Source of the DNA: Alphaproteobacteria bacterium
Lineage (GTDB): Bacteria; Pseudomonadota; Alphaproteobacteria; SP197
Assembly: GCA_009694045.1 (NCBI GenBank)
Contig: SHVY01000002.1
Coordinates: forward strand, 39,491 to 103,490
Direction of reading: 5' to 3'
Length of the DNA: 64,000 bases
Below are positions 3,786 through 62,132 of the stretch, piece by piece (position 1 is the first letter of the stretch; the number at the start of each line of letters is the position of its first letter). The notes below the pieces were generated by a model. It did no database searches, was not told where the DNA came from, and saw nothing but the letters and a program-made list of their open reading frames with translations. The translations under genes were made by a program, and so were the position numbers.

Positions 3786-4460
3786 ATGCTGACGACCGTC
3801 GTGCCCGTCGTTCCCGTCGAGACCGGAACGCTTCTTGATCGGGTCTACCGCGAGATCAAGCGACAGATCATGGCGGGAGCATTCAAGCCTGGTCAGACGT
3901 TCGCGACGATGTCGCTCGCTGCCGCCCTGGGTACCAGCACGATGCCGGTGCGCGAAGCCCTGCGCCGGCTCGAGACTGAAAAGGCGCTGCAGATACTGCC
4001 TAAACGCGCCGTGCTGATTCCACGCATGACCAAGGCACGGTTCCGTGAAATCACCGACGTCCGAATCGCCCTGGAGGGCATGGCTTCGGACTATGCCGGC
4101 CGACGCATCGAGGATGGCGAGCTGCGCGAGCTTGAAGACCTGCTCGGGATGGTGGAGAAGGCACGGAAGGCATCGGACCTGCGCGCGTACCTCGAGGTGC
4201 ATCAGGAGTTCCACTTCGCCATATACGGCGCGGCGCGACTGCCTGTCGTCATGCCTATGATCGAATCCCTTTGGCTACAGATTGGCCCGGTCTACGGGTT
4301 GCTCGACGTCGGCGGCATCAACCTCGGATCCGAGTGTCACCGCTTGGTGCTGGACGGCCTCCATCGGCGCGACGGCGCGCGCGCGCGGGACGCCCTGGCG
4401 CGCGACATCGCGCTCGGCGCCGAGGCCCTGCTCAATAGCCACGCCTTCGCCGAGGCCTGA
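3786..4460 (+). CDS. GntR-family transcriptional regulator (FadR/FCD subfamily)
   Basis: N-terminal wHTH (LDRVYREIKRQIMAGAFKPGQTF...STMPVREALRRLE) plus a C-terminal FCD-like region. The RBS is AGGATAAGG. Confidence 0.8.
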   Translation: MLTTVVPVVPVETGTLLDRVYREIKRQIMAGAFKPGQTFATMSLAAALGTSTMPVREALRRLETEKALQILPKRAVLIPRMTKARFREITDVRIALEGMASDYAGRRIEDGELRELEDLLGMVEKARKASDLRAYLEVHQEFHFAIYGAARLPVVMPMIESLWLQIGPVYGLLDVGGINLGSECHRLVLDGLHRRDGARARDALARDIALGAEALLNSHAFAEA

Positions 4461-4611
4461 GCGGCAACACCCAGCGCGTCCCAGTCGCGGCCCGGTCCGC
4501 ATTGTGAGACTTCGCCAAGGGCTCGGCGCGGCCGTGTTACTTTCGAAGCCGTCGCACGTTGACCAGCCTCTGTCGCCTGCCTATGGTCCGCCAGTCATCG
4601 CGGAGGTTGGC

Positions 4612-5841
4612 ATGGTCAGTCCGCTCGACGTCGGTTTCGTCCGCTCCCATTTTCCCGCGCTCGCGAGCGACTGGGCGATCATGGAGAACGCCGGCGGCAC
4701 CCTGGTGCCGCGCCAGGTGATCGAGCGGCTGCACAGCTATCTGTCGTTCAACCAGATCCAACCGGGGGCCGAGTTCCCGATCTCCGCCCAGGCCGCCGAG
4801 CGGATCGCCGAATCCGAGCGCCTGATGGCGGCCATGATCGGCGCCGAGCCGGGCGAGGTGCTGATCGGTCCCTCGACCACCATGAACGTGTTCCTGCTCA
4901 GCCACGCGATCCGCCCATGGCTGAAGCCCGGCGACGAGGTGATCGTCACCAACCTCGATCACGAGGCGAACAATGGCGCCTGGCGCCGGCTCGCCGAGGT
5001 CGGAGTCGTCGTCAGGGAATGGTCCTTCAACCTCGACACGGCCGCCCTGGAGGCCCACGACCTGCGGGCGCTCCTGACCGATCGGACCCGGCTCGTCTGC
5101 TTCACCCAGTGCTCGAACGTGGTGGGCACGATCCACGATGTCGCGGGTCTCACGCACATCGCCCACGACGCGGGGGCGCTGGTCTGCGTCGATGCGGTCG
5201 CCTACGCCCCTCACCGCCACCTGGACGTGAAGGCGCTGGGGGTCGATTTCTACCTGACCAGCCTGTACAAGATCTACGGACCCCACCTCGGCATGCTGTA
5301 CGGCCGGCGCGACCTGCTGCGCAAGGCCGATCGGCTGAACCATTTCTTCACCGACGACGACGTGCCGCTGCGCCTCCACCCCGGCGGCGTGAACCACGAG
5401 CTGACCGCATCCCTGTCCGGCGTCACGGCGTACTTCGATGCCTTGCACGACCGGCACTTCGGGCCAACGAACCTGCCCCTGCATGACCGGCTAGGCCAGG
5501 TCTTCGGCCTGATCGCCGACCACGAGGAGACGTTGTGCCGCCCGCTCCTGGAGTTTCTCGGCGGTCATCCCCGGGTTCGGCTCAACGGCTCGCGCGATCC
5601 CGACCAGCGTGCCCGCGTGCCCACGGTCACCTTCACCGTCAAGGATCGCAAGGCCGACGAGATCCCGACCGCCCTTCTGCCGCACCGCATCGGCATCCGC
5701 GCCGGCGACTTCTACGCCCGCCGGGCGATCGACACGTGGAATCTCGGCCCCCAGGGCGGCGTCGTCCGCGCGAGCATCGTCCACTACAACACGGTGGAGG
5801 AAGTGAACCGCCTGGTCGCCGCTCTGGACAGGGTGATCTGA
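4612..5841 (+). CDS. Class V aminotransferase (cysteine desulfurase / isopenicillin-N epimerase-like, PLP-dependent)
   Basis: AAT_V-like sequence (..TNLDHEANNGAWRRLAEVG.., SLYKIYGPHLGMLYG). Internal ATG at 4612 with a GGAGG RBS; the upstream part of the ORF is run-on. Confidence 0.7.
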   Translation: MVSPLDVGFVRSHFPALASDWAIMENAGGTLVPRQVIERLHSYLSFNQIQPGAEFPISAQAAERIAESERLMAAMIGAEPGEVLIGPSTTMNVFLLSHAIRPWLKPGDEVIVTNLDHEANNGAWRRLAEVGVVVREWSFNLDTAALEAHDLRALLTDRTRLVCFTQCSNVVGTIHDVAGLTHIAHDAGALVCVDAVAYAPHRHLDVKALGVDFYLTSLYKIYGPHLGMLYGRRDLLRKADRLNHFFTDDDVPLRLHPGGVNHELTASLSGVTAYFDALHDRHFGPTNLPLHDRLGQVFGLIADHEETLCRPLLEFLGGHPRVRLNGSRDPDQRARVPTVTFTVKDRKADEIPTALLPHRIGIRAGDFYARRAIDTWNLGPQGGVVRASIVHYNTVEEVNRLVAALDRVI

Positions 5842-8009: not shown

Positions 8010-8412
8010 GCCCTCCCGCGCGATGCCCGCACCCTAGCCAAACCGCTCGATTTGCGAAAGCGGGGGCCGAACCTATATACTTCAAGTGTCGGGCGGGAAA
8101 CCGGCCGACTATGGCGATAAACACTGCGTGGAATAAGCGGAGCGGACCCGGGGGCAGTACCCGGCGCCTCCACCATCACTCGATCTCGCGGCCCGGACGT
8201 TGGGCCGTGGGATGGGAAACCAAGGGGGCGAACCAGGATCGACGCACGCGGTAAAGGCGCAACTTTTGCCCGGTATGATTCCGCCGTTATCGGGTCGCAT
8301 CTACAAACGCCAATGATAATGAGGCGTTCGCTCTCGCTGCATAAGCGTTAGCGCGGTACGGGGGGCACCGGGCAACAGAAGCCCCCCAACGCTTTCTCGG
8401 GCGCAGGGTACC

Positions 8413-8904
8413 ATGGCCAAGGACGTGATCAGGTACGACCAGTTGATGCAGGACGCGATGCGGGGCGTCGTCGTCCAGGTTCTCAAGACCGCGGTGGCGG
8501 AAGGCCTTCCCGGCAAGCATCATTTTCTCATCAGCTTCCGCACCCATTATCCGGGCGTGGATGTGAGCGAGGATTTGCGGGGCCGCTACCCTCAGGATAT
8601 GACCATCGTCCTGCAGTACCAGTATTGGGACCTCAATGCCGACGACCATAAGTTCTGGGTGACGCTGAGTTTCAACAAGGTGCCGCGGCGGCTGGTGATC
8701 CCGTTCGCGGCCATCACCGGCTTCGCGGATCCCGAGGCGAAGTTCGATCTGCATTTCGCCCCGCGCGAGGTGGTTGAACCGCCGGCGAGGCCGGTCGGCC
8801 GCGTTGCCATGCCGGCCACGGCCATCGCTTCGGCGGCGCCGTCATCGGTGCCGCCGTCGGGCGATGGCAACGTCGTGCCGCTCGACACGTTCCGCCGCAA
8901 ATAG
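8413..8904 (+). CDS. SspB-like ClpXP adaptor (alphaproteobacterial stringent-starvation-protein-B family)
   Basis: Resembles SspB-alpha N-terminal domain (..VVVQVLKTAVAEGLPGKHHFLISFRTHYPGV..) with a disordered C-terminal tail. Confidence 0.5.
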   Translation: MAKDVIRYDQLMQDAMRGVVVQVLKTAVAEGLPGKHHFLISFRTHYPGVDVSEDLRGRYPQDMTIVLQYQYWDLNADDHKFWVTLSFNKVPRRLVIPFAAITGFADPEAKFDLHFAPREVVEPPARPVGRVAMPATAIASAAPSSVPPSGDGNVVPLDTFRRK

Positions 8905-8928
8905 GCGATCCACGAGGGGGGAAGGGGC

Positions 8929-10329
8929 ATGAGCAAGGCCAAGCGCGTGCGCGTGGAGACCGATTCGCTCGGACCGATCGACGTTCCCGGGGACCGCTAC
9001 TGGGGTGCCCAGACCCAGCGCAGCCTGGAGAACTTCAAGATCGGCGGCCAGCGCATGCCCGAGCCGCTGATCGCCGCCTTCGGCGTGTTGAAGCGGGCCG
9101 CCGCGCAGGTCAACCGCGACCTCGGCGTGCTCGATCCGAAGCTCTGCGCCGCCATCGCCAAGGCCGCCGACGAGGTGATCGACGGCCGCCTGATGGATCA
9201 TTTTCCCCTGGTGGTCTGGCAGACCGGCTCGGGAACCCAGACCAACATGAATGCCAACGAGGTGATCTCGAATCGGGCGATCGAGCTCTTGGGCGGTGTC
9301 GTCGGCTCGAAGGCGCCCGTCCATCCCAACGATCACGTCAACATGGGGCAATCGTCCAACGACAGCTTCCCGACAGCGATGCACATCGCGTCGGCAGTCG
9401 AGATCAAGTCCCGGCTTCTGCCGGCGCTCGCCAAACTGCATCGGGCGGTCGCCGCCAAGGCGAAGGCGTTCGCCAAGATCATCAAGATCGGCCGCACCCA
9501 CCTGCAGGACGCGACGCCGCTCACCCTCGGCCAGGAGTTCTCGGGCTACGCCAAGCAGATCGAGTTCGGCATTGCCAGGGTGGAAGCCGTCATGCCCCGA
9601 CTGCTGCGCCTCGCCCAAGGCGGCACCGCCGTCGGCACCGGGCTCAACGCGAAGAAGGGCTTCGACGTGAAGTTCGCGCGCGAGGTCGCCCGTCTCACCA
9701 AGCTGCCGTTCAAGACAGCCGACAACAAGTTCGAGGCCATGGCCGCCCACGACGCCATCGTCGAGGCGTCCGGCGCGCTCAATGTCCTCGCCGTGTCCCT
9801 CAACAAGATCGCCAACGACATCCGCCTCCTGGGCTCGGGCCCACGCTGCGGCATCGGCGAATTGATCTTGCCGGAGAACGAGCCGGGTTCGTCGATCATG
9901 CCGGGCAAGGTCAATCCGACCCAGTGCGAGGCGCTGACCATGGTCTGCGCCCAGGTCATGGGCAACCACGTCGCCATCACCATCGGCGGCGCGCAAGGGC
10001 ACTTCGAGTTGAACGTGTTCAAGCCGGTGATGATCCACAACCTGCTGCAATCGATTCGCCTGATCGCGGACTCGTCGGTCAGCTTCACCGACAACTGCAT
10101 GGTCGGCATCAAGGCGGACGTCGCCCGCATCAACCGCCTGCGCGACGACTCGCTCATGCTGGTGACGGCGCTCAACCCCTACATCGGCTACGACAAGGCG
10201 GCGAAGGCAGCGAAGAAAGCCCACGCGGAGGGCACAACCCTCAAGAGCGCGGCCCTGTCCCTGGGCTACCTGACGGCCGCGCAGTTCGATCAGTGGGTCC
10301 GCCCGGAGAAGATGATCGGGCCTAGGTAG
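8929..10329 (+). CDS. fumC: Fumarate hydratase class II
   Basis: [15 protein letters not shown] signature; full-length 466 aa; TAG stop. Confidence 0.95.
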
Positions 10330-16521: not shown

Positions 16522-17393
16522 GCGCGCTCTGGCGGATGACGCTCGCCTGCCCGGCCGCGGCGGTCGCTGCCCTGGTCGATGCCCTCGACGACGGCGTGGG
16601 CACCCTTGCGTCCTATCCCGACGCCGCCCCCGGTCGCTGGCGGATCGAGGCGATCCTGCCCTGCGCGCCGCAACGGGTGGCGATCGAAACGCGCCTCGCC
16701 CTCATCGCCGCGGCCCTCGGCATCGATCCGCCGCCCCTGACGATCGAGCCCCTCGCCGACGTGGATTGGCTCGCCCGCAACCGCGCGAGCTTCCCGCCCA
16801 TCGCCGTTGGCCCGTTCGTCGTGCATGGCGAGGGCGGGAGCGCGACGGGGCGCATCCCGATCCGCATCGACGCGGCCACCGCCTTCGGCACCGGCGAACA
16901 CGCGACGACGCGGGGCTGCCTCCTCGCCCTCGCGGTCGCGGTCCGGCACCGCCGCATCGCCCGCGCCCTCGATGTCGGAACCGGCTCCGGCGTCCTCGCG
17001 ATCGCCGCGGCAAGGCTCTGCCGTGCCCGGGTCCTGGCGGTCGACATCGATCCCGAATCGGTTATGGTCGCCCGACGCCACGTCCGCGTCAACGGGGTGG
17101 CCGACCTGGTGCGCGTGGCGCGCTCCGACGGCTACCGCGCAGCCCTGGTGGCGCGTGGTGCGCCTTACGATCTGGTGCTGGCGAACATCCTCGCCCGGCC
17201 CCTCGCCGCCATGGCCCTGGACCTCGCGCGGGTTCTGGCGCGCGGCGGTGTCGCGATCCTGTCGGGTCTTCTGATCGAGCAGGAGCCCTGGGTGCTGTGG
17301 CCGCAGCGGGCGCAAGGTCTCGCCCTCGCCCGCCGCTGGCGAATCGACGGCTGGTCGACCCTGCTGCTGACCCGGCGGGCCCCTAACCGCTGA
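16518..17393 (+). CDS. prmA: Ribosomal protein L11 methyltransferase
   Basis: PrmA-like sequence with SAM motif LDVGTGSGVLAIAA. GTG at 16518 overlaps the uvrD stop (GTGA); an alternative ATG lies at 16536. Confidence 0.7.
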   Translation: MSALWRMTLACPAAAVAALVDALDDGVGTLASYPDAAPGRWRIEAILPCAPQRVAIETRLALIAAALGIDPPPLTIEPLADVDWLARNRASFPPIAVGPFVVHGEGGSATGRIPIRIDAATAFGTGEHATTRGCLLALAVAVRHRRIARALDVGTGSGVLAIAAARLCRARVLAVDIDPESVMVARRHVRVNGVADLVRVARSDGYRAALVARGAPYDLVLANILARPLAAMALDLARVLARGGVAILSGLLIEQEPWVLWPQRAQGLALARRWRIDGWSTLLLTRRAPNR

Positions 17394-18516
17394 CCGGGTA
17401 GCCCATCGCCCGAGCCCACAGCATCTGGACCTGATGCACTCCGTGCTCGCTGATCTCGGTCATGTCGCGGTCGACGATGAACCGACCCCGGCTATAGCCT
17501 CGCGACCGCAGGCCGCGCTGCACCGCCTCGCAGATTCCCTTGTCTTCCCGCCACAGGGTATTGCCGCCGTAGTTCCGCCGCTCCTCGTTGATCGGCGCGC
17601 CGGGCCGCCGCAGGACCTCGTTGATCGTGCGGGTCGTCCCGACCTCGACCGGCTCGAACCGGAAGGCGACCATCTGCGCCTCGCCGGGCAGGACGTTCAG
17701 GGTGGTGTTGGGCCACAAGTACCAGAAGTCAACGCGCTGCGAGGAATCGTCGCGGCTGAACCGATACGCCCGGTTGTCGGGGTTCCCAGCCCGGCTCAGG
17801 CTGCTGATCCAGGTGTCGTGATTGGTGACCCGGTAGCTCTTGATGTCGACCAGGTCGACGAACGCCGGGTGCGCGGGCGCGCAGTGGTAGCACTCCATGC
17901 AGTTCTCGGCGAGCACCTTCCAGTTCGCCATCAGGTCGGCCGGCGGCGGCGCCGCGAGGTCGGGTCCGGCCGGGCCGGCATAGGCGAGCTCGGCCAGGAA
18001 CGGCACGTGTGCGGCGATCTCCTCGGCGAGGCCCGGATAGGTCTCGGCGATCGCCGCGGCCCCCAGGTCCAGGTTGACGAAATAGAAATCGAGCAGGCGG
18101 TCGACCTTCACCGGTTTCAGGCAGAACGCGCCGCCGTCGAACCCGGCGACGTTCTCGCTGCCCCGGGCACTCCTGAGCCGTCTATCGGCATGGTACGACT
18201 AGGCGTGATAGGGGCAGGTTATGACCTTGGCCCGGCCGCTGCCGCGCAGCAGTTCGTGGGCGCGATGCTGGCAAACGTTGTGGAACCCGCGCACCTCGCC
18301 GTCCTTGCCGCGGATCAGGAACACGCCTTCGCCGACCAGCCAGGTGGCGACGTAGGCGCCGATCTCCGCCAGGCGGCTGGCGTGGGTCACGTACTGCCAG
18401 GATCGGGCGAAGATCTTATCCTTCTCCTCGGCCAGGATCGCGGGGTCGGTGTAGACGCGGCCGGGCAAGGTATGCGCCCGCCGTGGATCGGCGATCAGGG
18501 GCTCGGTGTGGTTCAT
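17383..18516 (-). pseudogene. Rieske (2Fe-2S) ring-hydroxylating oxygenase alpha subunit interrupted by one in-frame TAG (18199-18201) at the Trp of the CPYHGW motif
   Basis: ORFs 18199..18516 and 17383..18111 are in the same frame. CQHRAHELL...CPYHA-TAG-SYHADRRL aligns with CRYHTWTYNLDGSL of the intact paralog at 19400..20596. Confidence 0.7.
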
Positions 18517-18562: not shown

Positions 18563-19314
18563 TCAAGCACGCACCCAGCGCACCTCGGTGTTGATCGAAC
18601 CATCGGACTCGAGCGTCATCGTCCGGTACCCGGGGCAATCCTCGATGTACGCCAGCGCCCCCGGTTCCAGATCGAACTGGGCCGCGGTCGACGGCGTGCC
18701 CATCAACCTGACGCCGCGGCGCAGCGCATCGACGGCCGCGTGGGCGTGGCCCCAGGCGAGACCACGCACATGGGCGTGGCGATCGATCACCCGGAACAGC
18801 CGGCTCCATCGGCCAGCGGGCAATAGTCCGCGCCGCTCCCCATCTGGATCGGATTGTGATGCAGGCAGATCAGCACCGGCTTCGTCGTCTGCCGGGCCAG
18901 CGTCCGGTCCAACGCGCCCAACCGTTCGGGGCCGAGGTGGCCGTGGTTCTGTCCCGGGATCGTGGTGTCGAGGAACAGGATGCGCCAGCCGCCAGCCGGC
19001 CACAGCGGCTCCGCCCGGATGGTACCGCCCGCGAGGCTCCGCGGCATGGCGGCGGGGTCGTCATGATTCCCCGGCAGGGCGAAGACCGGGACCTCCAGCC
19101 CCACGAGGATGGGGCGCAGACGGCGATAGGCCTCGAGGGAACCATCGGCCACCAGATCGCCGGTCGCCAGGACCGCGTCCGGCGGCCAATCCCCTGCCCT
19201 GGCATGGGCCACGACCCGGCCAAGGGTGGCCAGCGGGTCGACGTCCAGAACGCGTTCGCCCACCCGCGCGGTCAGGTGGCAGTCGCTGATCTGAACCAGG
19301 CGCAATGCAGCCAT
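18563..19314 (-). pseudogene. Metallophosphoesterase (CpdA-like cyclic-nucleotide phosphodiesterase) with a 1-nt frameshift near 18793-18806
   Basis: The N-terminal part (..GNHDD..ICLHHNPIQMGS..LADGAG) is in one frame. The C-terminal part (RLFRVIDRHAHVRGLAWGHAH...PSTAAQFDL...PGYRTMTLESDGSINTEVRWV) is in the +1 frame. Confidence 0.6.
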
Positions 19315-19399: not shown

Positions 19400-20596
19400 A
19401 TGGCCCGACCCGTGCCCCGGAAACCCGAGATCGCTGAGCAGCTTCTGCCGCCGGCGGCGTACCTGTCCGACGCTTGGTTCGAGCGCGAGCAGCGCGAGCT
19501 GTTCTCCCGCGCCTGGTCATTCGCCTGCACCACCCCGGACGTGTCGGAGCCCGGCGACTATCTGGTCGTCCAGGTTGGCCGTTACCCGATGTTCGTGATC
19601 CGCGACCGGGACGGCGAGCTGCGCGCCTACCACAACATCTGCCGCCATCGCGGCACCCAGGTGCTGGAGGGCAAGGGCAATCAGCGCCACGGCATCGTCT
19701 GCCGCTACCACACCTGGACCTACAACCTCGACGGCTCCCTGCGCGGCCTGCCGAAGCACGCCGAACTGTTCCCCGACCTGGACGTGAAGCGCATCGGCCT
19801 GCACAAGGGCAGCCTCGGCGTGCTGGGCGACCTCGTGTTCGTCAACCCGGACCCGGACCCGGAGCCCTTCGCCGACTGGCTCGGCGGAATCGAAGGGACC
19901 CACATGTGGCCCCACCGCGTCGCCGGACTCTCGGAGAAGCGCCCAATCCGCTACGACATCGCCTGCAATTGGAAGTTGTTCTGCGAAAACGCGATGGACG
20001 GCTACCACCTGTCCTACCTGCACGACAAGACGCTGATGGGACCAGATTCGATGCGCCAGGATTGGGATGCGGTGGGTCGCCATTGGGTGTTCATCAGCTT
20101 CGGCGAATCGGCGAACCGGCAGGACACTCAGTATTCCCCGATTCCGGGCGTCGATGCCTCGGGCCGCCACCCGGTGGTTTGGCAGTTCTTCCCCAACAGC
20201 GGCGTGCTAGGGACCTCGATCTTCTTCTCGGCCTACACCATCGTCCCGGTCGCCCCCGAACGCTGCTACCTCGAACTGCGCACCTGGATGATGCCGATGG
20301 AGACCCAAAGGGAGGAGAAACGCGTTCGCCCCTCGGGCTCGTCGGGCCACGGCACCATCATGCCCGACGGCAAGCGGTTGATCTCGATCCCGACCCTCAG
20401 CGGCCACGCCATGGACTCCCTGGACTTCCAGATCGAGGACATGTGGATCTGCGAGCGTCAGCAGGGGGCGCTGCGCTCGCCGCGCTTCCAGGTCGGACCG
20501 CTCGCCGCCCGGGTCGAGACCGCGTTGACTTTCTTCCAGCGCAACATCCTCGATTTCGTCCCCCTCGACTCCCCGCTCTCGCGCGCCGCGGAGTAG
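19400..20596 (+). CDS. Rieske (2Fe-2S) aromatic-ring-hydroxylating oxygenase alpha subunit (GbcA/CntA-like)
   Basis: CRHRG..CRYHTWTY Rieske motif plus a C-terminal catalytic domain. Internal ATG at 19400. Confidence 0.8.
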   Translation: MARPVPRKPEIAEQLLPPAAYLSDAWFEREQRELFSRAWSFACTTPDVSEPGDYLVVQVGRYPMFVIRDRDGELRAYHNICRHRGTQVLEGKGNQRHGIVCRYHTWTYNLDGSLRGLPKHAELFPDLDVKRIGLHKGSLGVLGDLVFVNPDPDPEPFADWLGGIEGTHMWPHRVAGLSEKRPIRYDIACNWKLFCENAMDGYHLSYLHDKTLMGPDSMRQDWDAVGRHWVFISFGESANRQDTQYSPIPGVDASGRHPVVWQFFPNSGVLGTSIFFSAYTIVPVAPERCYLELRTWMMPMETQREEKRVRPSGSSGHGTIMPDGKRLISIPTLSGHAMDSLDFQIEDMWICERQQGALRSPRFQVGPLAARVETALTFFQRNILDFVPLDSPLSRAAE

Positions 20597-49849: not shown

Positions 49850-50258
<409 letters not shown>

Positions 50259-59100: not shown

Positions 59101-59369
59101 TAGGCTTCCATGGTCCGAACCCGGAATTGGACATCAAGCCATGGTTGGGAACGGTGCGAATACCCACGCTCGTGACACACGGCGTCAATGACCGGCGCGC
59201 CCCGTACGCGGTGTCGAAATACATAGCCAACCAGATTCCTGGGGCGTTGCACTTTGGCTTTCCCGGGCGCGGACACGAGCCGCTCTTCACGGCGCCGGCT
59301 GAATTCCTCGCCGTCCTTGACCAATTCATCAAGACCGGCACCGTGCCGTCCCCTACCCGATCAGGATGA
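56139..59369 (+). pseudogene. Large multi-domain signalling gene (SAM, class III adenylate/guanylate cyclase, AAA/STAND ATPase, TPR), running on without a stop into an alpha/beta-hydrolase domain; disrupted by two +1 frameshifts
   Basis: SAM region WLNDLALDQYATAFAANDID..LKELGVASLGHRKKL; cyclase region KEVTVLFADVQGS..FEGTVNKVQGDGIMALFGAP; AAA region GLVGEPGVGKSRL. Shift 1 at ~57651-57665: ..GGRSTYAQ / RLDPLPPLGIADLLTALLGNDASL..GGNPLHVEE. Shift 2 at ~58653-58661: ..SQPLLELM / KRYRVVTVHPRGDG...GISRGG nucleophile elbow. The ATG at 56139 follows a G-rich RBS. Confidence 0.55.
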
Positions 59370-60690
59370 ACACCCGGGTGTTGCCGCGGACCACGCTGAG
59401 GCTCATGCGGCTGGAGTTCTGGCGGGCAATGTCGAGCAGGGCTTCCGGCGTCGCCACCGGCTCGCGGTTGACGGCGACGATCACGTCGCCCGGCCGCAGG
59501 CCCGCCCGCGCCGCCGGGCTGCCCGGCACCACGTCGGACACCAGCACGCCGCCCTCGCCGTCCTCGTCCGGGGGCAGGGCCTGGAAGCTCGCGCCGGCCA
59601 GGAGCGGCACGGTCGCCGCCGTCGTGGCCGCGGACGCCGGCGCCGCCGCTTCGTGCTCGATCGTCGCCATCACCGTGCGCGGCACGCCGTCGCGCACCAC
59701 GTCGAGCGCCATGGAATCGCCCACCCGCAGCAGCCCGACCTTGTTCCGGAGGTCGAAGCTGCCGTCCACGGCCCGGCCGTTGGCGCCGATCACCAGATCG
59801 CCCGGCTGCAAACCCGCCTGGTCCGCCGGCGACCCCGGCTTGACCGCCACCACCAGGGCGCCCGCGGTCGAGGCGAGGCCCAACCCTTGCGCCAGGTCCG
59901 GCGTCAGATCCTGGGTGCGCACCCCAAGCTGGCCGCGATCGATCGAGCCGTGCAGGGCGATCTGTTCGGCGATCCCGCGCACCATGGTGACGGGGATGGC
60001 GAAGCCGATGCCGATCGAGCCGCCGCGGCCGAGGATCGCCGTGTTGATGCCGACCAGCTCGCCCGCCATGTTCACCAGCGCTCCGCCCGAGTTGCCGGGG
60101 TTGATCGAGGCGTCGGTCTGGATGAAGTCCTCGTAAACCTCGAGCCCGAGGCCCCGCCCCAGCGCGCTGACGATCCCGAGCGTCACGGTCTGGCCGATGC
60201 CGAACGGATTGCCGATCGCCAGCACGAAGTCGCCGACCTCCAGCGCGTCCGAATCGCCGATCGGAATCGCCGTCAAACCCTCGGCCGGGATGCGCAGGAC
60301 GGCGATGTCGGTTTCCGGATCGGTTCCGACCAGCTCGGCGGCGAAGCTGCGCTGGTCGCGGAGCGTGATACGGATCACGTCGGCGCCGTTGATGACGTGA
60401 TGGTTGGTGACGATCAGCCCTTGGTCCGCGTCGATGATGACGCCGGAGCCGGCGCTCGTCACCTCGCGGCTGCCGCCGTCGTCGGGCAGGCCGAAGAAGT
60501 TGCGGAAGAACGGGTCGGCGAACAGGGGATTGGCTGGATCGGCGATCGTCGCCTTGACCGCGACGTTGACCACGGCGGGGGTCACCTGCTTGATCATCGG
60601 CGCAAGGCTGGGCAGCGGCGCGGTCGCGGCCCCCGCCACGCCCGCCCATCCGACCACCGCCACCACGAGCCAAGCGCCCATTCGCCGCAT
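59353..60690 (-). CDS. degP: Periplasmic serine endoprotease DegP/HtrA (trypsin domain plus two PDZ domains)
   Basis: HHVINGAD..D..GNSGGAL catalytic triad context; two PDZ domains. Signal peptide from the ATG at 60690; alternatives at 60681 and 60705. Confidence 0.9.
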   Translation of the reverse strand: MRRMGAWLVVAVVGWAGVAGAATAPLPSLAPMIKQVTPAVVNVAVKATIADPANPLFADPFFRNFFGLPDDGGSREVTSAGSGVIIDADQGLIVTNHHVINGADVIRITLRDQRSFAAELVGTDPETDIAVLRIPAEGLTAIPIGDSDALEVGDFVLAIGNPFGIGQTVTLGIVSALGRGLGLEVYEDFIQTDASINPGNSGGALVNMAGELVGINTAILGRGGSIGIGFAIPVTMVRGIAEQIALHGSIDRGQLGVRTQDLTPDLAQGLGLASTAGALVVAVKPGSPADQAGLQPGDLVIGANGRAVDGSFDLRNKVGLLRVGDSMALDVVRDGVPRTVMATIEHEAAAPASAATTAATVPLLAGASFQALPPDEDGEGGVLVSDVVPGSPAARAGLRPGDVIVAVNREPVATPEALLDIARQNSSRMSLSVVRGNTRVFILIG

Positions 60691-60728
60691 CGCTTCGTCC
60701 TCCATCGCGGCCACTATATAGTGCGCCC

Positions 60729-62132
60729 GTGACGGTCGCGAACCCCCCCCTTCGCTCCGGCTGGCGCCGGTGGCTCGCCGCCTCCGCCGTGTACCGCGAG
60801 CGCGCCGTCCTCGTCGTCCTCGCCCTCGGGTTCGCGAGCGGCCTGCCGCTGGCCCTCAGCGGCGCAACCCTCGCCATCCGCCTGCGCGAGGCCGGGCTCG
60901 AGCTCGGCTCCATCGGCCTGTTCGCGGCCGTCGGCGCGCCCTACACCCTCAAGGTCCTGTGGGCACCGCTGGTCGATCACCTGCCGATCCCCGTGCTCAC
61001 GCGGGTCCTCGGGCGCCGGCGCGGCTGGTTGTTGGCAAGCCAGGTCGCCGTCGTGGGCGCGATCCTCGCCCTCGGCGGGGTCGATCCCGAAGGCGCGATC
61101 GGCCTGGTCGCGCTCCTCGCCTTCATCCTCGCCGCCCTGTCCGCGACCCAGGACATCGTGATCGACGCCTACCGGGTAGAAAGCCTGGAGGATCGCCAGC
61201 AAGGCGCCGGAGCCGCCATGGCGGTGTTCGGCTACCGGGTCGGCATGTTGGCCTCGGGTGCGCTCGCCCTGATCCTCGCCGAGCGTCTGCCCTGGGTGGC
61301 GGTCTACCTCGCGATGGCGGCCTTGATGGCGGTGGGCGTGTTCGCGACCCTCCTCGCGCGCGAGCCGGCCGGCGCCGCCGCCCGCGCAGCCGGCGTCCGA
61401 GATCGCGCCGAGGCCGCTCGCCTCGCCGGCCGCCTGGGACTCGCGAACGCCAGGGCGGCGGCGGCCTGGGCCTGGCTCTACCGCGCCGCGGTCCGCCCGT
61501 TCCTCGACTTCATGACCCGGTCGCGATGGCTCTGGGTCCTGCTGTTCGTGGTGCTGTACAAGTTCGGAGACGCTCTGGCCGGCTCCCTCGCCAGCGTGTT
61601 CTACCTCGATATCGGCTTCGCCAAGGACGAGATCGGCGCCGTCGCCAAGGTCTTTGGCTTCGGCGCGACCTTGGTTGGGCTGGCGCTCGGCGGTTGGCTG
61701 CTCAACGCCGTCGGTGCCGTCCGCGCGCTGCTGATCGCCGGCATCCTGCAGCTCCTCTCCAACCTGACCTTCGCCGTCCAGGCCGTGGCGGGCCCGGACC
61801 TGGGGTTCCTCGCCTTCACCATCGCGGCCGAGAACCTGGCCGGCGGGATGGGGACCGCGGCCTTCGTCGCCTACTTGAGCGGCCTGTGCAACGTCGCCTA
61901 CACCGCCACCCAGTACGCCCTGCTGTCGTCCCTCGCCGCGTTCGCGCGCACTCTTCTGGTCACCCCGGCGGGGTTCCTGGTTGAGCGCCTGGACTGGACC
62001 GGCGCGGCCGCCGCCGTTGGCCTAGGAGCCCTGCCCAATCTGCCCTGGATTGGCTTCTTCCTGCTCACCACCCTCGCCGCGGTCCCCGGGCTTCTGCTTC
62101 TCCTGGTCGTCGCGCGGCCGCGACGTGATTAG
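60729..62132 (+). CDS. ampG: Muropeptide permease AmpG (MFS)
   Basis: LGFASGLPLAL...GAPYTLKVLWAPLVD AmpG signature; ~14 TM. GTG start at 60729; TAG stop. Confidence 0.85.
   Translation: MTVANPPLRSGWRRWLAASAVYRERAVLVVLALGFASGLPLALSGATLAIRLREAGLELGSIGLFAAVGAPYTLKVLWAPLVDHLPIPVLTRVLGRRRGWLLASQVAVVGAILALGGVDPEGAIGLVALLAFILAALSATQDIVIDAYRVESLEDRQQGAGAAMAVFGYRVGMLASGALALILAERLPWVAVYLAMAALMAVGVFATLLAREPAGAAARAAGVRDRAEAARLAGRLGLANARAAAAWAWLYRAAVRPFLDFMTRSRWLWVLLFVVLYKFGDALAGSLASVFYLDIGFAKDEIGAVAKVFGFGATLVGLALGGWLLNAVGAVRALLIAGILQLLSNLTFAVQAVAGPDLGFLAFTIAAENLAGGMGTAAFVAYLSGLCNVAYTATQYALLSSLAAFARTLLVTPAGFLVERLDWTGAAAAVGLGALPNLPWIGFFLLTTLAAVPGLLLLLVVARPRRD

Follow-up and report, generated by a model that had tools for sequence, protein, structure and literature searches.

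We found that a gene for a Rieske oxygenase related to the carnitine monooxygenase CntA is interrupted by an in-frame amber codon. The locus is very probably a recently inactivated unitary pseudogene, and it belongs to an uncultured alphaproteobacterium from deep Lake Baikal. Below, "the window" means the whole 64-kb stretch of DNA that was analyzed (64,000 nucleotides), and all coordinates refer to it unless another contig is named. The features that the argument depends on are as follows.

17383..18516, minus strand: predicted former Group V (CntA-like) Rieske non-heme iron oxygenase alpha subunit gene, 377 codons, now very probably a pseudogene
18202..18516 (18199..18516 with the stop codon), minus strand: remnant ORF 1, 105 amino acids, MSP81507.1 / EXQ94_00895, annotated at NCBI as "hypothetical protein"
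18201..18199, minus strand: premature amber codon TAG in place of the Trp codon TGG of CPYHAW, codon 106
18181..18183, minus strand: second lesion, AGA (Arg112) in place of Gly, which turns HADGRL into HADRRL, six codons after the TAG
about 18134..18137 (the GACGGCGGCG run), minus strand: out-of-frame insertion of 2 nt (GG) in the variant from 1250 m (L001), in one Logan contig only
17383..18111, minus strand: remnant ORF 2, 242 amino acids from a GTG, MSP81506.1 / EXQ94_00890, annotated at NCBI as "hypothetical protein"
18563..19314, minus strand: CpdA-like metallophosphoesterase gene, directly upstream of the oxygenase, frameshifted at about 18800-18812
19400..20596, plus strand: intact, divergent Rieske oxygenase paralog, 28% identical to the broken gene, ending in TAG

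The interrupted frame and the enzyme it encoded

Translation of the minus strand from 18516 to 17383 gives 377 codons with one internal stop and the terminal stop. The product is not a single uninterrupted two-domain polypeptide: codon 106 is TAG. Around this codon the minus strand reads ...AKVITCPYHA-TAG-SYHADRRLRSARGSENVAGF..., from the codons GTC ATA ACC TGC CCC TAT CAC GCC TAG TCG TAC CAT GCC GAT AGA CGG. The initial annotation placed the 105- and 242-amino-acid ORFs in one frame with the TAG alone between them, and the arithmetic bears this out (18516 - 18111 = 405 = 135 x 3). It also described the corresponding motif of the paralog correctly; that gene (19313/19400..20596) reads CRYHTWTYNLDGSL. 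At its 3' end, the broken oxygenase overlaps by 11 nt (17383..17393) the 3' end of a convergent prmA-like methyltransferase gene, which is on the plus strand and ends at 17393.

For domain and homology searches, we joined the two parts and set the TAG position to Trp. The Trp-restored protein matches the Pfam Rieske domain (PF00355) at residues 39-124 (E = 2.7e-15) and Ring_hydroxyl_A (PF00848) at residues 193-371 (E = 3e-23). The ligands of the Rieske [2Fe-2S] cluster are present as CQH at 81-83 and CPYH at 101-104, and these align with Cys86, His88, Cys106, and His109 of CntA. The 2-His-1-carboxylate iron site is also present: His211, His216, and Asp325 align with His208, His213, and Asp323 of CntA (the roles of the CntA residues are from PMC7948474 and PMC10952381). 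At residues 204-217, the protein reads ENCMECYHCAPAHP, with the bridging Glu followed by a Cys-x-x-Cys pair (E-C-Y-H-C), which is the same pattern as MECYHCGPAHP in CntA. A cysteine pair by the mononuclear iron is a feature of Group V Rieske oxygenases (PMC10952381). These residues divide between the two remnants. ORF 1 is a truncated Rieske domain that retains all four cluster ligands (CQH...CPYH) and stops roughly 19 residues short of the end of the Pfam match. ORF 2 is the catalytic domain, with ECYHC, His211, His216, and Asp325 all intact.

Judging from these residues and domains, the ancestral gene is most probably a Group V (CntA-like) Rieske oxygenase alpha subunit, and a quaternary-ammonium compound is its putative substrate. 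A more specific assignment to GbcA is not indicated, as the score against that NCBIfam equivalog (119.8 bits) is far below the cutoff of 670. Homologs at JGI are named "choline monooxygenase" or "carnitine monooxygenase subunit," which are automatic labels only. No gene for a CntB-like reductase was seen beside the broken oxygenase in the window, which is annotated in part.

The protein search returned thousands of full-length relatives of 369-406 amino acids that span 91-99% of the joined sequence. The closest of the full-length relatives are 62-66% identical (P0002, P0004, P0005, and L009). The closest relative overall is a JGI fragment, truncated by the end of its contig (P0003/L005), which is 80% identical and has TGG at codon 106 and GGC at codon 112. 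Among genome and metagenome contigs, we found no member of the same species or close relative that has both an intact TGG and the same gene order: the best match among genome contigs (L009) is at 66% identity in a different neighborhood, and the best among metagenome contigs is at 53%. At the locus of the 65%-identical P0002 (L006, coordinates 249-1421 and 4080-5384), there is a second Rieske oxygenase gene (434 amino acids) close by, encoded on the other strand, which is also the arrangement in the window. In L006, genes resembling acyl-CoA synthetase and Asp/Glu racemase come after the oxygenase homolog.

We aligned 117 full-length homologs. As the initial annotation proposed, the TAG falls at an invariant position, as the column is Trp in all 117. 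Its proposal of a single G-to-A transition from TGG to TAG is also the parsimonious one, and the DNA of the three closest homologs (L005, L003, and L006) reads TGG at this site. It had no good reason to single out the invariant Trp as remarkable. The broken gene has nine Trp codons, and 18 of the 27 ways to reach a stop by one transition begin at TGG. Because Trp codons are the commonest one-transition route to a stop, a hit on one of them is expected.

We propose the following course of events. A G-to-A transition would have turned the Trp codon after the second pair of Rieske ligands (CPYH-A-W) into an amber stop. Ribosomes would then terminate after residue 105. The truncated product would be missing the final part of the Rieske fold along with the entire catalytic domain, so it would not form a functional oxygenase. 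The gene has since acquired further damage, with the Gly112Arg change in all copies and the 2-nt frameshift in one variant, and the cpdA-like gene upstream is frameshifted too.

Separate assemblies, further lesions, and age

The initial annotation had allowed for a base-call error, in which case the true codon would be TGG and the gene would be intact. The genome was assembled from short-read metagenomes and NCBI annotates two separate hypothetical proteins rather than a pseudogene, both of which would fit an error. However, three assembly efforts (the NCBI genome, which is the window; ENA; and Logan) agree on this base, and so do two physically separate samples. Specifically, the Logan contigs L001 (from SRR8561390) and L002 (from SRR8561391) carry the same TAG, and the 105- and 242-amino-acid gene calls recur on two ENA contigs of ERZ1305449. 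The two runs are separate Lake Baikal samples from 1250 m and 1350 m (PMC7678222). Compared with the window, L002 shows 100% identity across 4,008 nt and L001 shows 99.85% across 6.6 kb. The Gly112Arg change and the frameshift in the cpdA-like gene are reproduced as well. Because separately assembled contigs from the two samples agree on the TAG, a base-call or assembly error is untenable; we consider this explanation effectively refuted and give it hardly any weight. The TAG allele is the assembled consensus at both depths, 1250 m and 1350 m, although TGG may persist in the population as a minority allele.

The pseudogene carries other damage. At codon 112, all three assemblies (the window, L001, and L002) have AGA, which encodes Arg; this position is Gly in all 117 homologs, and the three closest DNAs have GGC or GGG. 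In L001, the GG insertion (L001 3990-4000) sits 21 codons after the TAG, just upstream of the GTG of the 242-amino-acid ORF, and tblastn breaks L001 into two frames at about query residue 128-130. The 6.6 kb shared with the window contain just one further indel, which lies in the intact paralog and keeps the frame: L001 lacks the 6 nt at window positions 19845-19850, in a PDPDPEP repeat, and the gene calls are 396 and 398 amino acids. There are also two SNPs between L001 and the window, at window positions 19871 and 19262. Given these indels and SNPs, at least two strains co-occur.

Directly upstream, the cpdA-like gene is split between two frames. The ORF at 18787..19314 matches positions 14-172 of the 275 positions of the NF008359 profile, and an ORF in another frame (18563..19003) matches positions 185-260. 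L001, L002, and the ENA contigs have the same gene calls of 175 and 75 amino acids, and neither Logan contig shows an indel relative to the window at the site of the frameshift.

We considered two other candidate signs of decay in the oxygenase and rejected both. First, Phe363Val resembles a third lesion, in that the position is Phe in 117 of 117 homologs, but the 80%-identical relative has Thr there, so we view it as a feature of the lineage and not as decay. Second, codons that end in A or T (ATA, TAT, CAT, GAT, AGA, and AGT) seem to cluster near the TAG, as if they marked a mutational patch or a foreign insert. The cluster is not significant: a permutation test on its 5 such codons in 16 gives p = 0.68, and clusters of the same or greater size occur in intact genes.

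Other than these lesions, the sequence still looks like a gene. The coding scores per codon of the two halves are 0.52 and 0.48, as compared to 0.28-0.57 for intact genes, and GC3 is 0.90 in each half. Relative to the 80%-identical L005, dN/dS is 0.20, or 0.196 downstream of the stop. None of the metal ligands has been lost, nor has the bridging Glu or the Cys pair. The gene-like codon usage and the dN/dS of 0.20 imply that the loss is recent relative to the divergence from L005, and we infer that the inactivation was recent on the scale of sequence divergence. Of the explanations in the initial annotation, a very recent nonsense mutation is the one that holds up, with the TAG in separate assemblies of two samples, further lesions nearby, and a sequence that is otherwise still gene-like.

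Read-through, a split enzyme, and other interrupted homologs

To see the family without relying on gene calls, we fetched about 160 homologous loci by a DNA pattern that is blind to them. About 3-4% of these loci are also broken, so a few percent of the family's copies in public assemblies are disrupted. A homolog with 63% identity that came from other metagenomes (L003/L004, from JGI 3300056725 and SRR35551589) has an in-frame TAG at Glu121, the Glu of ARGSE (L003 868-870 and L004 919-921). In this homolog, an ATG stands one codon past the stop (TAG CGC ATG), and the 3' end is shared with an overlapping PhyH-family gene. Among the fetched loci, another homolog has an in-frame TAG at the invariant Lys200 of NWK (L138 1834-1836), on a contig whose name gives a very low coverage (0.33). 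A third has an in-frame TAG in a variable loop (L126 4847-4849). Three more of the fetched homologs (L142, L147, and L148) have frameshifts.

All of these belong to the same oxygenase family as the broken gene in the window and are likewise interrupted by a TAG or a frameshift, but at other positions and in other organisms. Because both the positions and the organisms differ, these are independent events. We read them as ordinary disruptions that arose independently, or as errors on low-coverage contigs.

One could instead imagine that translation passes through the UAG with the help of a suppressor tRNA, natural read-through, or a pyrrolysine-like system, and that some full-length enzyme is still produced, possibly in small, regulated amounts. 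Two observations could be cited for this. The in-frame stops in homologs of this family are TAG in four of four cases (the window, L003/L004, L126, and L138), and the family acts on quaternary amines, which is a loose association with Pyl enzymes only. Pyl enzymes occur elsewhere in quaternary amine metabolism. As a signal, the run of four TAGs did not survive scrutiny: its chance under plain mutation is about 0.10, because single-step mutations to a stop in these genes give TAG in 50-62% of cases. Also, no two of the four TAGs share a position (they replace W, E, K, and a residue in a loop), and the lineages are unrelated. UAG is not conserved at the position seen in the window, where 117 of 117 homologs have Trp.

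The rest of the window also argues against read-through. The initial annotation had listed a suppressed stop as a less likely option, and we found nothing in its favor; TAG is the true terminator of at least four conserved genes here. In fumC (8905..10329), ampG (60594..62132), and degP (59353..60855), the TAG is within 2, 7, and 1-2 residues, respectively, of the end of the family profile; thyX and the intact Rieske paralog likewise end in TAG. UAG is thus not avoided as a terminator, as would be expected under recoding: TAG is a normal terminator in the source genome. Similarly, when we scanned the ORFs neighboring the stops in L126, L138, and L003 with TAG as a sense codon, we saw no sign of recoding. 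These ORFs lack an internal TAG or have just one near the end, which fits a normal terminator.

No tRNA genes, including any with a CUA anticodon, were found in the 64-kb window by ARAGORN, which reported only a two-piece tmRNA, and an Rfam scan of the window found only tmRNA and RNase P RNA. The tmRNA is of the two-piece (permuted) alphaproteobacterial type, with the tag ANDNEAFALAA, and the RNase P RNA is of class A (8049..8435 on the plus strand and 49851..50254 on the minus strand, respectively). Both are ordinary housekeeping RNAs, and they confirm a chromosomal alphaproteobacterial context.

The base that follows the premature TAG is U. A U after the stop is reportedly a strong termination context in E. 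coli, which is a further point against read-through. Finally, a read-through product would gain little: Gly112Arg would still cripple the full-length protein, and in the L001 variant, the frameshift downstream of the TAG would defeat read-through altogether. Overall, we consider it extremely improbable that a functional full-length enzyme is made from this locus by read-through or recoding. The broader idea, that UAG repeatedly interrupts this quaternary-amine oxygenase family so that low-level read-through or recoding makes expression regulated or conditional, strikes us as just as hard to credit.

Another possibility is that the 105-residue Rieske piece and the 242-residue catalytic piece are made separately and assemble into a functional split enzyme. 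The metal ligands are retained in both pieces, the 242-amino-acid ORF is intact in all of the assemblies, and the TAG-CGC-ATG of the 63%-identical homolog (L003) could allow re-initiation there. However, the cut is inside the Rieske fold, as the Pfam match runs to residue 124 and the first piece ends at 105. Residues 107-135 would be lost, including L114-R115 and F126, which are at least 90% conserved, and the invariant L133.

Independent translation of the 242-amino-acid ORF also does not seem feasible. There is no Shine-Dalgarno sequence before its GTG at 18111, and no start codon is suitably spaced from the AGGAG at about 18169-18173. Furthermore, none of the 117 full-length homologs and none of the roughly 160 fetched loci are broken at the same point. 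The initial annotation had raised the prospect of homologs that naturally end at CPYHA and are followed by a separate downstream gene, and this same survey turned up no such arrangement. An intact 242-amino-acid ORF, with the 2-nt insertion falling just short of its GTG, is what a very young pseudogene would look like, although taken alone it would also be compatible with separate expression. Taking these points together, a working split enzyme seems very improbable, and the product of the downstream ORF is probably neither made nor needed.

Gene loss and comparison with known systems

With a recently inactivated pseudogene as the preferred explanation, the oxygenase gene appears to be dispensable in the Baikal population. 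Could its loss have been favored? Under this scenario, selection maintains the null allele, and cells in the deep lake would benefit from losing both the oxygenase and the cpdA-like gene, so that the decay would not be neutral. Two adjacent genes on the same strand have been inactivated, and the inactive alleles are the consensus at two depths, which would fit. However, nothing in these data separates adaptive from neutral loss, and the two samples come from one campaign. We view adaptive loss as unlikely.

The practical consequences are for annotation. The entries EXQ94_00890 (MSP81506.1) and EXQ94_00895 (MSP81507.1) belong together and should become a single pseudogene entry for a CntA-like, Group V Rieske oxygenase, and the cpdA-like neighbor likewise needs a pseudogene flag. 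Metabolic reconstructions of this metagenome-assembled genome should not count the oxygenase as functional. The locus is also a small, clean case of ongoing gene loss in a free-living alphaproteobacterium from a deep lake, with a second disabling mutation segregating. Overall, this is a real but ordinary young nonsense pseudogene beside a second pseudogene, and it has little import beyond annotation.

Two known systems put the locus in context. The first is CntA, the oxygenase subunit of carnitine monooxygenase from Acinetobacter baumannii (PDB 6Y8J), which is the closest solved structure (E = 2.4e-73 over residues 5-368). CntA and the ancestral gene share the Rieske ligand pattern C-x-H...C-P-Y-H-A-W, and the M-E-C-Y-H-C-x-P-A-H-P block is identical in CntA and the broken gene. 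Unlike CntA, the copy in the window is broken by the TAG stop and by Gly112Arg.

The second is the ordinary nonsense pseudogene of bacteria. The locus has the same hallmarks: a single premature stop within a frame that is otherwise gene-like, secondary lesions that are accumulating, a broken neighbor, an intact paralog, and an annotation as two short "hypothetical proteins." Nothing material sets it apart from such pseudogenes, and its one notable feature is a null allele that forms the consensus in samples from two depths.
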